From Patescibacteria group bacterium (GTDB taxonomy: Bacteria > Patescibacteriota > Minisyncoccia > Phycocordibacterales > Phycocordibacteraceae): a stretch of DNA of 64,000 bases. Position 1 is the first letter of the stretch. The number at the start of each line of letters is the position of its first letter. The translations under genes were made by a program, and so were the position numbers. The notes beneath the pieces are model-generated. The model was not told the origin of the DNA. It saw only the letters and a list, made by a program, of their open reading frames with translations, and searched no databases. Where the stretch lies: assembly GCA_040388985.1 (NCBI GenBank), contig JAZKAU010000002.1, positions 183,642 through 247,641 of the forward strand, read 5' to 3'. Positions 9,830-41,702 of this stretch are shown piece after piece.

Positions 9830-9858
9830 TTGCATAAATTAGGCTATTCTTATATAGT
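9830..9858 (+). promoter_or_regulatory. sigma70-like promoter for rpsL (TTGCAT-N17-TATAGT)
   Basis: -35 at 9830-9835 and -10 at 9853-9858, about 35 nt upstream of the rpsL ATG. Confidence 0.4.
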
Positions 9859-9892
9859 CTTACCAGCTCCCACGGGGAGTTTTCATTTCGAA

Positions 9893-10303
9893 ATGGCAAC
9901 CATAAATCAGCTCGCAAAGAAGGCTCGTAAGAGCACCCCGAGGAAATCGAAGGTCCTCGCTCTTGGCCGTGGCTTCAACGCCCTCAAGAATCGCCCGACC
10001 TTCTACCCGGCTCCTTTCAAGCGCGGCGTATGCACCAAAGTAACGACGAAAACTCCTCGCAAGCCTAACTCGGCTATCCGTAAGATCGCCCGTGTCCGCC
10101 TTACCAACGGCATGGAAGTGACCGCCTACATCCCGGGCGAGGGCCACAACCTCCAGGAACACTCGGTGGTCATGCTTCGCGGAGGCCGCGTGAAGGACAT
10201 CGGCGTGCAGTACACGGTCGTTCGCGGTCGCCTCGACACGGCCGGCATCGACAAGCGCCGCCGCGGTCGTTCGAAGTACGGCGCCAAGAAGCCGAAGGCA
10301 TAA
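9893..10303 (+). CDS. rpsL: 30S ribosomal protein S12
   Basis: [13 protein letters not shown]...PNSAIRK..RVRLTNG; canonical uS12; the ORF extends upstream from a TTG, but ATG 9893 matches the S12 N-terminus. Confidence 0.95.
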
Positions 10304-10333
10304 TCCTTTCTATCTTTTTCTCTTACCCTCACC

Positions 10334-10801
10334 ATGCGTCACCCTCTTAATAACAAGCGTACTCGCCGTCCTGACTCCGAATATAATTCGGAAGCTATCT
10401 CTCGTTTCATAAATACGGTCATGCTCGACGGCAAGAAGGATACCGCTCGCAAGGTCGTCTACGATGCCCTCACCATCATCTCCAAGGGAGGAGAAGTAGA
10501 CGCGCTCGAGACATTCGAGACGGCTATCCGCAACGTGGCTCCGCTCATGGAAGTCCGCTCCCGCCGCGTCGGTGGCGCAAACTACCAGGTTCCTCGTGAA
10601 GTACCGCAGCAGCGCCGCGTCTCTCTTGCCTACCGTTGGCTCATCAATGCAGCCCGCGCGCGCAAGGGAAAGCCCATGGCTCAGAAGCTCGCTGACGAGA
10701 TCATGCTCGCGGTGAACAACGAAGGCTCGGCCATCAAGAAGAAGGACGATATGCATCGCATGGCTGATTCCAACAAGGCCTTTGCGCACTTCGCCTGGTA
10801 A
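10334..10801 (+). CDS. rpsG: 30S ribosomal protein S7
   Basis: RRPDSEYNSEAISRFINTVMLDGKK...VEVRSRRVGGANYQVP matches uS7. Confidence 0.95.
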   Translation: MRHPLNNKRTRRPDSEYNSEAISRFINTVMLDGKKDTARKVVYDALTIISKGGEVDALETFETAIRNVAPLMEVRSRRVGGANYQVPREVPQQRRVSLAYRWLINAARARKGKPMAQKLADEIMLAVNNEGSAIKKKDDMHRMADSNKAFAHFAW

Positions 10802-10822
10802 GTCGAATAAAAGAATAGGTAT

Positions 10823-10864
10823 GCGTAAAGAGCCGGGATCCATATGGATCCCGGCTCTTTACGC
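10823..10864. terminator. 42-bp perfect palindrome, bidirectional terminator after rpsG
   Basis: GCGTAAAGAGCCGGGATCCAT|ATGGATCCCGGCTCTTTACGC followed by AAATTTTTTCT. Confidence 0.6.
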
Positions 10865-10965
10865 ATCGGGATAAATTTTTTCTGAAATAATCTTCAAAGA
10901 TACTTAATCCGTCATTATCATTGCCAAGGCCAGAAAAATTGACGGCCGACTGCTGCTAAGGAAGA

Positions 10966-39302: not shown

Positions 39303-39326
39303 GTTTATTGCTACGATAGATACTGC

Positions 39327-39908
39327 ATGGAACGCGCGACTACTAATACGATACTCCTTATCGGCAAGCCCGGAAGCGGGAAGGGAACACAGGCCAAGCT
39401 CCTATCCGAGCGTCTCGGGTGGATACGCCTCTCGTCGGGGGATAGGTTCAAGCAGATACGAGATGGCAGCGAGCCGTTCTCGGAACGCGTACGGTCCATA
39501 TACGACAAAGGCACGCTTTTGCCGGATTGGTTCGCTGACTATCTGCTCGAGAGCAGCTTACTCAGTCTTGATGCGCACGTCGGAGTCATCTGCGAGGGGT
39601 TCGGAAGGACGCTCAGTCAGGCACAGCACCTGAGCGAGATAACCGAATGGCTTGGCAGGAGTCTTTTGGTGATAAACCTTGAGGTATCCGACGAGGAAGT
39701 CGTGCGGCGGATGATGAGCCGCAGCCTCGTGCAGGATCGTCCGGACAGTAACAGCGAAGAGAAGATACGCACACGGCTCGCGCAGTTCGCGAGCGAGACC
39801 GCTCCTGCCCTCGAATTCTTCAAGAAGCTCGGACTCGTGAAGGATGTAGACGGCGAACTCAATCCGGAGGGAGTCGCAGGCGCTATCGAAGCTACCCTCA
39901 AGGCATAA
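39327..39908 (+). CDS. adk: adenylate kinase
   Basis: ILLIGKPGSGKGTQAKLLSERLG...LDGFPRT-like CEGFGRTLSQA. Confidence 0.88.
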   Translation: MERATTNTILLIGKPGSGKGTQAKLLSERLGWIRLSSGDRFKQIRDGSEPFSERVRSIYDKGTLLPDWFADYLLESSLLSLDAHVGVICEGFGRTLSQAQHLSEITEWLGRSLLVINLEVSDEEVVRRMMSRSLVQDRPDSNSEEKIRTRLAQFASETAPALEFFKKLGLVKDVDGELNPEGVAGAIEATLKA

Positions 39909-39913
39909 GCTGC

Positions 39914-40693
39914 ATGATCGTACGAACACCTGAAGAACGCACCGACATCATCGAAGCCGGACGCCGGCTCGGCGCGGTGATAGATGAGGTAGCGAAAGCC
40001 GTGAAGCCTGGAGTTTCCACGCTCGAACTCGACACGCTTGCAGAGTCCCTCATCCGCGAAGGAGGCGACGTGCCAGCCTTCAAGGGCTACACGCCTGAGG
40101 GCGTCTCGTACCCGTACCCAGCGACGCTCTGCGTGTCCGTGAACGACGAAGTCGTTCACGGTATTCCGTCCGCTTCGCGGCGGCTTATGGAAGGGGATAT
40201 AGTCTCCCTTGATCTGGGACTCATTCATAACGGCCTCGTGACCGACTCTGCGACTACGGTTGCCGTGGGAACGACCGACAAGCAGTCTTATGCGCTCATG
40301 GACGCCACGCGTGAGTCTTTGGAGGCTGCTATACGGGCCGCTCGCCCGGGAAACAGGATAGGGGACATCTCGCACGCAACTGAAGAAGCGTTCAAGGACA
40401 CCGGCTTTTCTGTAGTTAAGGTTCTCGGCGGACACGGCGTAGGTCGCGCAGTGCACGAGGAGCCGTTCATCGGAAATGCAGGACATCCTGGAACGGGCCC
40501 CGAGATAGTGTCCGGCATGGTGCTTGCGCTTGAACCTATCGCGAACGCTGGGAAAGCCGCCGTGCACCTGATGCCCGACGATTATACCTTCCGCACTCGC
40601 GACGGCTCGAAGAGCGCGCATTTCGAGCACACCATACTCATCGAAGACGACGAGACAATCGTCATAACCCGTAGAGCGAGCGAAGCCGCGTAG
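39914..40693 (+). CDS. map: methionine aminopeptidase type I
   Basis: Pita-bread fold motifs (...HGIPS...DIVSLDLG...GHGVGRAVHEEP...); position after adk. Confidence 0.9.
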   Translation: MIVRTPEERTDIIEAGRRLGAVIDEVAKAVKPGVSTLELDTLAESLIREGGDVPAFKGYTPEGVSYPYPATLCVSVNDEVVHGIPSASRRLMEGDIVSLDLGLIHNGLVTDSATTVAVGTTDKQSYALMDATRESLEAAIRAARPGNRIGDISHATEEAFKDTGFSVVKVLGGHGVGRAVHEEPFIGNAGHPGTGPEIVSGMVLALEPIANAGKAAVHLMPDDYTFRTRDGSKSAHFEHTILIEDDETIVITRRASEAA

Positions 40694-40760
40694 CTCCTTC
40701 ATGAAGTCCTCACCCTGCAGGTGGGAAACTGGATGGATACTCATCTAACATTTCTAGACT

Positions 40761-40991
40761 ATGACAACTATCGTCAATACTCCTAATTCAGACGGAGGAG
40801 GAAGTAGCGGATGGGTCGTCGCGGTTATCGTACTGCTCGTCGTCATTATCGGCGGATACTTCGCCTGGGCGCATTACGGACGTTCAGCTCCGGCAAGTCC
40901 TTCCGCGAACATAAACGTGACGCTTCCTGGGGGAGGCAGCGATAGCGGCGCTCCGACTCCGGCTCCTCAGAGCTCCGGTACCGGGTACTAA
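40761..40991 (+). CDS. small single-TM protein
   Basis: 76 aa with a GWVVAVIVLLVVIIGGYFAW TM segment and G/S/P-rich tails; followed by a long palindromic terminator at 41004-41040. Confidence 0.3.
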   Translation: MTTIVNTPNSDGGGSSGWVVAVIVLLVVIIGGYFAWAHYGRSAPASPSANINVTLPGGGSDSGAPTPAPQSSGTGY

Positions 40992-41090
40992 GACCGACTG
41001 ACCAAAACAAGCCCGGCCGCTCGCGCGGCCGGGCTTGTTTTGGTATACTGCATGCATATAAGCGCCGCAGGCGATTTTTCATTCCAGGAC

Positions 41091-41702
41091 ATGTCCACCC
41101 CTCACCCAAGCTCCGAGCGTACGCTCGTTATCGTTAAGCCAGACGGCGTTCAGCGCGGTCTCATCGGCGAAGCCATCAAGCGCTATGAGAATGTCGGTCT
41201 CAAACTCGTCGGCATAAAGATCGGCGTGCCTGATGCCGAGAAGATTGAGCAGCACTACACGCTTGATCCCGAGTGGCGCCGTATCACCGGCGAGAAGACC
41301 ATCGAGAGCTACCGTAAGAAAGACCTCACCCCACCGTCCGAAGATCCGCTCGAGATAACGGCAGTCATCCTGGCGAATCTCAAGACCTATATGACCTCGG
41401 GCCCCGTAGTCTTCATGGTCTGGCAGGGCGCGCATGCGGTGAAGATCGTCCGTAAGTTGACCGGCGGCACCGAGCCGCTCACGTCAGATGTCGGTACCAT
41501 CCGTGGCGACTACGTCCTCGACTCCTATCAGATGTCAGACCGTGATAATCGCGCTGTCCGTAATGTCATTCATGCCTCCGGCTCGCCTGAAGAGGCTGAT
41601 ATGGAAATCAAGCACTGGTTCCTTCCGAGCGAACTCGTCGAATATCGTCTTCTCAACGAAAGCATCCTCTACGACGCCAACCTCGACGGCATCCTCGACT
41701 AA
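41091..41702 (+). CDS. ndk: nucleoside diphosphate kinase (with ~50-aa internal insertion)
   Basis: ERTLVIVKPDGVQRGLIGEAIKRYE and the active-site NVIHASGS; 203 aa versus the usual ~140. Confidence 0.8.
   Translation: MSTPHPSSERTLVIVKPDGVQRGLIGEAIKRYENVGLKLVGIKIGVPDAEKIEQHYTLDPEWRRITGEKTIESYRKKDLTPPSEDPLEITAVILANLKTYMTSGPVVFMVWQGAHAVKIVRKLTGGTEPLTSDVGTIRGDYVLDSYQMSDRDNRAVRNVIHASGSPEEADMEIKHWFLPSELVEYRLLNESILYDANLDGILD

Follow-up and report, generated by a model that had tools for sequence, protein, structure and literature searches.

A ribosomal-protein gene array of a Patescibacteria group bacterium interrupted at six junctions that recur across Paceibacteria: probable re-partitioning into transcription modules with variable gene content between them

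The str-S10-spc array of ribosomal-protein genes is the textbook case of a gene order frozen for billions of years, and phylogenies of the Candidate Phyla Radiation (CPR) rest on its "16 syntenic ribosomal proteins." Here we consider a version of this array on a 64,000-nucleotide stretch of DNA from a Patescibacteria group bacterium (contig JAZKAU010000002.1, positions 183,642 to 247,641; below, the window), in which six junctions between neighboring core genes are occupied by other genes. Among described systems, the "ribosomal superoperon" neighborhood concept (reviewed in Koonin & Wolf 2008, PMC2588523) comes close in that a conserved ribosomal-protein array has adk, map, secY, and others variably embedded by lineage. 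That concept concerns loose neighborhoods over all prokaryotes, however, without fixed lineage-wide breakpoints that carry hypervariable content. In cyanobacteria and plastids, rpsJ is part of the str operon (rpsL-rpsG-fusA-tufA-rpsJ) and is located away from rplC. The window shares this tuf-rpsJ unit and the break between rpsJ and rplC, but while the two parts of the cyanobacterial and plastid order are physically separated, here they are colinear, with a small variable spacer between them and five further breakpoints. The nearest parallel is found in the work of Brandis et al. (PMC6735719, PMC8046335), which describes operon concatenation and invasion-separation in Gammaproteobacteria and Bacilli, with sporadic insertions (163 events over 204 genomes); the examples considered here lie mostly between operons as defined in Escherichia coli (rpoBC/str and str/S10), one of them, nrdHEF, being placed within the rpoBC operon.

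The window resembles operon-cluster invasion in several respects. The insertions are small and multigene, consist of nonmobile housekeeping genes, and lie between transcription units with colinearity kept; five of the six have a terminator hairpin on one side and a promoter-like site on the other. Likewise, terminator and promoter are juxtaposed or overlap at unbroken junctions, as seen here at rpsJ/rplC in the relative L004 (see below), and no trace of distant horizontal transfer is apparent in the inserted genes. In contrast to the published examples, the breaks lie inside the E. coli str, S10, and spc operons, whereas the classical str/S10 and S10/spc borders (tuf/rpsJ and rpsQ/rplN) are closed in the window and in 98 to 100% of relatives. 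Moreover, the breaks are occupied in 27 to 86% of the species of a class-level group, and three of them turn over very fast. On this comparison, the locus appears to match the operon concatenation/invasion-separation picture with three differences, namely, site position, lineage-wide sharing, and fast turnover at three sites. No description of these breakpoints in CPR was found in the limited collection of literature that we searched.

The open reading frame (ORF) listing, translations, Pfam, and NCBIfam together identify the universal order from rpsL to map, entirely on the plus strand: rpsL-rpsG-fusA-tuf-rpsJ-rplC-rplD-rplW-rplB-rpsS-rplV-rpsC-rplP-rpmC-rpsQ-rplN-rplX-rplE-rpsN-rpsH-rplF-rplR-rpsE-rplO-secY-adk-map. 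The array is not contiguous, with six junctions that carry 0.9 to 4.4 kb of other genes and hold 14.4 kb of nonribosomal DNA in total. An earlier reading of the sequence (the original prediction) had listed five insertion points; its gene content and order at these five are borne out, and the junction that it did not list is secY/adk, which contains genes for a DKNYY protein and guanylate kinase (gmk). It had also extended the super-operon to the alpha operon, but infA, rpmJ, rpsM, rpsK, rpsD, rpoA, and rplQ were not found anywhere in the window, a negative that covers 25 of the 44 Pfam families recorded for the remaining ORFs, as well as N-terminal sequences. Between rpsE and rplO, rpmD (L30) is absent; L30 is missing in all CPR (PMC9297842).

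We consider it probable, from the arrangement of genes and predicted signals, that in this Kaiserbacteria-like lineage of Paceibacteria the super-operon has been re-partitioned into about seven transcription modules whose spacers are permissive slots with variable gene turnover. The first would comprise rpsL (9893 to 10303) and rpsG (10334 to 10801), identified from their translations and with tblastn orthologues in 27 to 30 loci. The second would be fusA alone (elongation factor G, 15178 to 17334), the translation of which is 82 to 91% identical to those of relatives, and the third tuf (19789 to 20991) with rpsJ (21014 to 21388), only 22 nucleotides (nt) apart, so that the classical str/S10 border is closed. 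The fourth, rplC, rplD, rplW, and rplB (22317 to 25057), has internal junctions that are open in 0 to 1% of relatives. The fifth runs from rpsS through rplV, rpsC, rplP, rpmC, rpsQ, rplN, and rplX to rplE (27452 to 31097) and spans the classical S10/spc border rpsQ/rplN, which measures only 18 nt in the window. The sixth contains rpsN (assigned to S14 by NCBIfam), rpsH, rplF, rplR, rpsE, rplO, and secY (33757 to 37732), and the seventh, adk (39327 to 39908) and map (39914 to 40693), both recognized by Pfam, ends the ribosomal cluster. All seven are on the plus strand. Most modules would end in a strong intrinsic-terminator hairpin, after which the next one has a conserved promoter of the sigma-70 type and a leader to itself. 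The stretch from terminator to promoter would then be the only place where extra DNA fits without breaking cotranscription or translational coupling, and the spacers may act as permissive slots because DNA added there spares both. In this scheme, ordinary chromosomal genes would enter the slots, most of them bringing or acquiring their own -10 box and terminator, and would later be lost or replaced. The residents seen in the window and in relatives comprise genes for cell wall hydrolases, for pilin and surface proteins, for pyrimidine metabolism and nucleotide kinases, and for an oxygenase, along with orphan ORFs. Turnover would be slow at rplB/rpsS, rpsG/fusA, and secY/adk, where residents are common to relatives, and fast at fusA/tuf, rpsJ/rplC, and rplE/rpsN. 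That the hairpins terminate and the boxes initiate transcription is inferred, as is the mode of cargo arrival.

One line of evidence comes from the breakpoints in related species. Twenty-seven core proteins were mapped by tblastn onto 80 loci from relatives chosen by L2 similarity (species level, Paceibacteria only), and each of 26 junctions was scored as open when its gap exceeded 300 bp. The L2 protein of the window is 61 to 81% identical to those of these 80 genomes, which carry the labels Kaiserbacteria, Paceibacteria, Parcubacteria, Nomurabacteria, or Zambryskibacteria, and 93 to 94% identical to that of five further metagenomic contigs that we regard as genus-level relatives (L081 to L085). 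Among the 80, the open junctions are rplB/rpsS (86%), fusA/tuf (85%), rplE/rpsN (61%), rpsG/fusA (50%), secY/adk (38%), and rpsJ/rplC (27%). Each of the other 20 junctions is open in 0 to 2%, including the classical borders (tuf/rpsJ exceeds 300 bp in only 2% and rpsQ/rplN in 0%). The six recurrently open junctions are thus exactly the six interruptions of the window. Relatives have 0 to 5 of them open, with 0.7 to 7.3 kb of cargo, compared with six of six and 14.4 kb in the window, a load roughly double that of the fullest relative sampled. Because gaps recur at these six sites, and at practically no others, throughout the 80 species, such fragmentation is the norm in the lineage, with the window as its most filled example and the extreme of a continuum. 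The original prediction had called this degree of fragmentation unusual and attributed it to recent accessory insertion; it proposed a synteny comparison with relatives as a check and named an interrupted order shared throughout the lineage as what would speak against it. The comparison shows breakpoints common to the lineage, which largely removes that claim for the breakpoints themselves, and cargo that is partly genome specific.

A further line of evidence is provided by the one cargo-free genome that was examined for terminator-promoter juxtaposition at closed junctions. In L004, the L2 protein of which is 80% identical to that of the window, all six junctions are closed. Its rpsJ is followed by a terminator of -32.5 kcal/mol whose U-tract runs directly into TTGCAT-17-TAGAGT, its rplB by a terminator of -27.4 kcal/mol and then a promoter-like site, and a TTGACT-17-TATTCT promoter-like site, upstream of rpsN, is embedded in the final rplE codons. 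Because cargo-free L004 keeps terminators and promoters, hairpins recur in relatives, and promoter blocks are conserved, the predicted module borders exist independently of cargo.

Terminator-like hairpins were located at all six positions where palindromes had been predicted. They follow rpsG (10821 to 10866; perfect 23-bp arms, about -46 kcal/mol), fusA (17349 to 17390; perfect 18-bp arms), rpsJ (21514 to 21557; perfect 20-bp arms, 126 nt past the stop codon), rplB (25058 to 25101, directly 3' of the gene; perfect 20-bp arms with A-tract and U-tract, -40 kcal/mol), rplE (31111 to 31155; 19-bp arms), and pyrF (33489 to 33514; perfect 11-bp arms and then a T-run). Their description as long and perfect holds for most, but the rplE hairpin has one mismatch and the arms of the pyrF hairpin are only 11 bp. 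Other hairpins lie within cargo, at 12979 to 12995, 13441 to 13523, and 14126 to 14160 in the rpsG/fusA gap, after the pilin gene (about 18543 to 18566), after a hypothetical gene (about 19148 to 19181), and at 19512 to 19540 in the fusA/tuf gap, and after the orphan ORF in the rpsJ/rplC gap (22113 to 22138); a further one with 28-bp perfect arms follows ndk (41708 to 41766). Perfect arms of at least 18 bp around a loop of at most 7 nt would be expected by chance only about 1e-5 times in 64 kb. The layout is that of intrinsic terminators, with stems of 11 to 28 bp, loops of 0 to 7 nt, flanking A- and U-tracts, and positions 0 to 20 nt after stop codons except at rpsJ, where the distance is 126 nt; the U-tracts of the fusA and rpsG hairpins are weak. 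The hairpins share no sequence among themselves, and their design of A-tract, GC stem, and U-tract is that of bidirectional intrinsic terminators. The rplB hairpin is 94% identical to that of L002, and in 31 to 47% of the 80 loci a hairpin of at least -20 kcal/mol strength is found no more than 100 nt past the stop codons of rpsG, fusA, tuf, rpsJ, rplB, and rplE, compared with 2 to 19% for other ribosomal-protein genes. The long-hairpin style also appears beyond the ribosomal cluster (at 41001, 41708, 45109, 59853, and 60878). Given its occurrence behind other genes both inside the region and nearby, it is, as judged from these predicted structures, the ordinary terminator style of this genome and no special mark of the cluster. 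The example at 45109 to 45155 is a bidirectional terminator between convergent genes.

Two other structured stretches lie beside these hairpins. Between the rpsJ stop codon and the rpsJ terminator is a rod-like hairpin of 125 nt (21389 to 21513; -36.8 kcal/mol, z-score -5.3) for which relatives show no DNA similarity; it could be a structured 3' untranslated region, a small RNA, or what is left of former cargo. Positions 33530 to 33679, flanked by the pyrF terminator and the rpsN promoter, form a second structured stretch (-57.5 kcal/mol, z-score -3.6), which is window specific and has no Rfam match. At gathering thresholds, Rfam found only transfer-messenger RNA (tmRNA) over the whole window and no known ribosomal-protein leader or riboswitch that would explain the structured spacers.

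Promoter-like sites were scored as matches out of 12 to the sigma-70 consensus. The best of the three main sites, all on the plus strand, is that of rpsN (33697 to 33725, TTGACA-17-(TG)aTACAGT), with 10/12 and an upstream TG. Those of rpsL (9830 to 9858) and rplC (22142 to 22170) share one architecture, TTGCAT-17-TATAGT, and score 8/12. In other words, of the two promoters that had been singled out as good, rpsN is confirmed and rpsL is weaker than claimed, yet the same site at rplC is kept in relatives. Among six aligned genomes, the rplC site has an invariant -35 box, a -10 box of either TATAGT or TAGAGT, and a conserved leader, and the boxes of the rpsN site are invariant, again with a conserved leader. 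Conservation extends to larger promoter/leader blocks before fusA (15017 to 15177), tuf (19544 to 19657), rplC (22142 to 22213), rpsS (27290 to 27338), and rpsN (33686 to 33756), which are 79 to 95% identical to relatives, while the cargo that adjoins them is unrelated among genomes. The fusA block (plus strand) has 86 to 87% DNA identity to L081 and L083 and contains a hairpin at 15093 to 15126 (fold z-score -3.5); the tuf block, part of an upstream region that extends to 19788 on the same strand, is 88 to 95% identical to L081 and L083 and 74% identical to L002. Sites of at least 10/12 occur upstream of tuf, rpsS, and rpsN in 43, 46, and 33% of the 80 loci, respectively, compared with 0 to 7% upstream of genes internal to modules and in shuffled controls.

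The first 46 kb of the window contain 34 copies of the hexamer TATA[CG]T, which is concentrated in intergenic DNA (16 of 34 in 10.8% of the DNA). Fifteen of these 16 intergenic boxes share the strand of the genes and precede rpsL, rplC, and most of the cargo genes, and a TATAGT box at 21567 lies ahead of the orphan ORF in the rpsJ/rplC gap. Boxes are found 7 to 10 nt before the starts of the NUDIX (25121 to 25132), 2-oxoglutarate (2OG) oxygenase (25568 to 25579), NlpC (14169 to 14183), and C39 (31196 to 31209) genes, a spacing suggestive of leaderless transcripts from cargo genes, in contrast to the leaders of 30 to 150 nt in the ribosomal modules. Two of these leaders deserve mention. Right before the rpsN ATG (33726 to 33756), a short hairpin GCTC(C/T)CCGGAGC with a U-run is present in all six aligned genomes and also in L004; it could mask a GGAG Shine-Dalgarno motif or work as an attenuator and is a candidate autoregulatory leader of the rpsN-rpsH module. 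The rplC leader (22172 to 22316) has a 5' half kept across the family and, in the window, an extra hairpin of about 50 nt (GTGTTTTATTTTAG...CTGAAATAAAACA). This structured leader may correspond, in this lineage, to the S10 leader under L4 control, transferred to rplC.

The cargo itself is varied. The rpsG/fusA gap (4,376 bp; cargo at 10966 to 15005, plus strand) encodes a 662-residue secreted or surface protein with a Big_7 domain (10966 to 12954), a His-rich membrane peptide (13179 to 13445), a Peptidase_M15_4 protein (13562 to 14125), and an NlpC/P60 protein with an SH3 domain (14184 to 15005). In the fusA/tuf gap (2,454 bp; cargo at 17413 to 19540, plus strand) are genes for a membrane protein (17413 to 17898), a type IV pilin-like protein with an N_methyl domain (17955 to 18518), and a hypothetical protein (18584 to 19129), followed by a small ORF (19249 to 19506). 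The rpsJ/rplC gap (928 bp; cargo at 21597 to 22138) has a single orphan ORF of 158 codons (21597 to 22073, plus strand). Cargo on both strands fills the rplB/rpsS gap (2,394 bp; 25133 to 27296), where the NUDIX (25133 to 25555) and 2OG-Fe(II) oxygenase (25580 to 26428) genes are on the plus strand and that for a DUF3298 membrane protein (26406 to 27296) is on the minus strand, the convergent 3' ends of the latter two overlapping by 23 nt. The rplE/rpsN gap (2,659 bp; cargo at 31210 to 33514, plus strand) contains genes for a C39-like peptidase (31210 to 31875) and a pyrE-like phosphoribosyltransferase (PRTase; 32049 to 32711), and pyrF (32725 to 33471). Finally, in the secY/adk gap (1,594 bp, plus strand) the DKNYY gene (37754 to 38707) and gmk (38712 to 39302) are separated from their neighbors and from each other by 21, 4, and 24 nt and have no terminator or promoter of their own. 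Domain assignments are from Pfam, in the last two gaps together with NCBIfam. The claim that each insertion carries its own terminator and promoter is thus true of most units, which have a terminator-like hairpin and a -10-like box, but fails for this last cargo, which has neither. A second C39-like gene at 5052 to 5561 is only about 20% identical to that in the rplE/rpsN gap, which rules out the latter as a recent intragenomic duplicate of the former.

How much of this cargo is shared depends on the junction. At rplB/rpsS, the whole NUDIX-2OG-DUF3298 cassette, including its 23-nt overlap, recurs in the five genus-level contigs; L086 and L087 have 2OG-DUF3298 there (2OG 63% and 50% identical), and seven GTDB species have DUF3298 alone. 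An NlpC gene lies ahead of fusA in L081, L083, and L007, accompanied by M15 in L083 and L007, and gmk is found at secY/adk in several more distant relatives. The two hydrolases are ordered M15 then NlpC in the window (13562 to 15005) and NlpC then M15 in L083 (1 to 1314) and L007 (910 to 2283), a difference that on the face of the gene maps is a local rearrangement within the slot. At fusA/tuf, rpsJ/rplC, and rplE/rpsN, in contrast, tblastx detected no similarity among the cargo of the window, L081, L083, L085, L086, and L087 apart from short boundary blocks; the ribosomal proteins of the genomes compared in this way are 73 to 92% identical to those of the window. Hence, the original description of the cargo as accessory insertions finds support at these three junctions, where the content is genome specific, and not at the three with shared residents.

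This mixture bears on the interpretation initially given, namely, that five or six independent accessory or horizontally acquired, self-contained expression cassettes recently broke up the array in this genome. The cargo at the three fast junctions is unique even against relatives with ribosomal proteins 87 to 92% identical, and the only match of the rpsJ/rplC ORF among 5.8 billion proteins is itself. Homologues of the C39 peptidase number only 11 and lie, wherever context is available, in nonribosomal accessory neighborhoods, and both the hairpin and -10 box of most units and the doubled cargo load of the window would fit recent arrival. Yet the same junctions are open in most relatives, terminators and promoters are present even at empty junctions, and the rplB/rpsS cassette, NlpC (with M15 in some), and gmk are inherited, which contradicts recent insertion at three junctions; in addition, the cargo is native in composition, and no mobility genes, repeats, or tRNA were found. 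We therefore regard recent breakage of the array as unlikely.

The opposite extreme, that the Paceibacteria ancestor already had many genes at the six positions and only divergence and differential loss have followed, would account for breakpoints common to the whole sampled class-level group and for residents that are old (DUF3298 and 2OG-DUF3298 at rplB/rpsS and gmk at secY/adk). We judge it to be less probable still, as the cargo is overwhelmingly unrelated between genomes, not only by tblastx but also in BLAST clustering, in which 316 of 341 clusters of ORFs from the gaps of relatives are singletons. In addition, the pyrE-like PRTase occurs at fusA/tuf in seven loci, at rplB/rpsS in three, and at rplE/rpsN in the window, with OMPdecase recorded at the same junction groups in relatives, and 2OG lies next to rplB in one clade only and outside the ribosomal cluster in most lineages. 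Because the PRTase occupies differing junctions and 2OG is mostly found elsewhere, relocation into slots is needed rather than simple ancestry. A Pfam census of the gaps of relatives is very mixed, with DAGK, DUF3298, IS200-like Y1 transposase, PemK/MazF, pyrD/E/F, gmk, cmk, L10/L12, reverse transcriptase, Mur ligases, transporters, and others; that some slots hold genes of the IS200-like, MazF, or reverse-transcriptase type likewise argues against a purely ancestral order.

Some recurrent residents of these slots may be noted separately. Domains of pyrF and pyrD occur in the same slots as the PRTase, and gmk, cmk, adk, and ndk gather around the cluster, so that there may be a nucleotide-metabolism theme. 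The rplB/rpsS slot of L026, L031, L036, L050, and L053 holds a single gene of about 229 codons, mostly on the minus strand and presumably of the IS200-like Y1_Tnp family; given its presence at the same place in several species, it looks like a vertically inherited and possibly domesticated transposase. In a further clade (eight loci), DAGK is found at rplB/rpsS on the plus strand. The rpsJ/rplC spacer of L081 (5802 to 6647; 847 bp) has no called gene, where the window has its orphan ORF and L083 a pilin-like gene. Possibly, this slot is a site of gene decay or de novo ORF birth.

Runs of same-strand genes, each followed by a palindrome, at recurrent sites are also reminiscent of genomic islands and integron arrays. 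Both were rejected as candidates. The window contains no tRNA, Pfam revealed no transposase, integrase, or mobility domain among its cargo, ten cargo proteins had no PHROG matches, and a search for direct repeats flanking the cargo returned only chance repeats. Unlike those of integron cassettes, the palindromes are perfect, mutually unrelated, and terminator-like with A- and U-tracts, and the genes have their own -10 boxes. Nor is there a compositional shift: GC content and GC at third codon positions (GC3) are 0.552 and 0.637 for cargo, 0.534 and 0.618 for other nonribosomal genes of the window, and 0.596 and 0.731 for the ribosomal core, in a window of about 55% GC. The higher values of the core are as expected for highly expressed genes, and a foreign origin of the cargo is rejected by these figures; the homologues of the 2OG protein, moreover, are all of the Paceibacteria type. 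Chimeric joins in a metagenome-assembled contig could in principle mimic such an architecture, and the source is indeed a contig of that kind, 525 kb in length. We give an assembly or binning artifact almost no weight, since the architecture recurs in dozens of independent assemblies from different projects, junction terminators and promoters are conserved across assemblies, and composition is uniform. Elsewhere in the window, positions 57000 to 63000 have a GC content of 0.43 to 0.49, compared with about 0.55 for the rest, and encode TrmB/MarR-type regulators and hypothetical proteins; as a candidate for recent acquisition, this region is more plausible than any cargo of the ribosomal cluster.

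Several observations weigh against the module scheme or limit its reach. The terminators and promoters on which it draws are predictions from sequence in a lineage whose transcription signals are uncharacterized, and promoter support is uneven, with scores of only 8/12 for the rpsL and rplC sites and no clear site in the window before the membrane protein gene at 17413 or before rpsS. The NlpC gene has no clear terminator ahead of fusA and may be read through. Cargo 6, the DKNYY-gmk pair, lies without signals of its own within an apparent operon, so that not every slot is an intermodule spacer. As to the survey, the 80 relatives are phylogenetically nonindependent, the percentages are descriptive, and gap sizes are approximate because they derive from the ends of tblastn high-scoring segment pairs. 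With these points taken into account, re-partitioning into modules with permissive slots remains in our view the probable explanation.

A different possibility is that residents are kept for their action on the translation apparatus or for coexpression with it, as might be imagined for 2OG, NUDIX, gmk, pyrE, pyrF, and ndk near adk. The oxygenase is the most suggestive case, with an intact HxD...H...RxS catalytic set and a position between rplB and rpsS that is held down to 50% identity; genes for nucleotide kinases and pyrimidine metabolism are repeated occupants of the slots in many relatives, and adk is a classical nonribosomal member of the spc region. However, the enzyme matches PF03171 (IPNS/ACCO-like), and its closest solved structures by sequence in the PDB are generic plant and microbial small-molecule 2OG oxygenases (E value of 2e-6) rather than JmjC/cupin ribosomal oxygenases. 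Together with the clade-specific rplB linkage, this speaks against placing it among the ribosomal oxygenases of the YcfD/RoxA, NO66/MINA53, and OGFOD1 types. In a metagenome scan, homologues were beside rplB in only about 9 of 80 loci and mostly elsewhere, some of the latter at 57% identity, and several close relatives have DUF3298 without 2OG. Most other cargo consists of cell envelope proteins or orphans without a link to translation. Functional recruitment thus seems quite improbable to us as a general explanation, even a little more so than a purely ancestral order.

If the array has indeed been re-partitioned into modules with permissive slots, operon borders inside it would be evolvable rather than fixed, and the cargo-free and filled states of the same junction would offer a natural system for studying how permissive a site is to insertion. 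Annotators and binners should then expect nonribosomal genes in ribosomal blocks of Patescibacteria, and NUDIX-2OG-DUF3298, NlpC/M15, gmk, and pyrE/F would be marked as probably coexpressed with the translation machinery in not-yet-cultured organisms. For this window alone, the message is more modest, namely, fragmentation that is normal for the lineage, of which it is only the most filled example. More speculatively, Paceibacteria as a whole may have redrawn the borders of the array, fusing str/S10 and S10/spc and creating six new internal borders with terminator and promoter. These might serve as landing pads with a turnover faster than almost anywhere near core genes, where surface and cell wall cargo could plausibly be relevant to episymbiosis and where addresses beside highly expressed genes might allow new or orphan genes to be tried out. 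We offer this wider reading tentatively, with rather less than even confidence in it as a whole.

Downstream of map, the plus strand continues with a small membrane ORF (40761 to 40991), a terminator (41001 to 41044), ndk (41094 to 41702), and the terminator with 28-bp arms described above; a membrane protein and a beta-CASP nuclease follow. The adjacency of map and ndk is also seen in L004. Genes for L28, L20, and IF3 lie outside the main cluster on the minus strand (176 to 418 and 45163 to 46342). The tmRNA gene is on the same strand at 63158 to 63587 (Rfam, 71 bits), and a protein with an SmpB domain is likewise encoded within the window.

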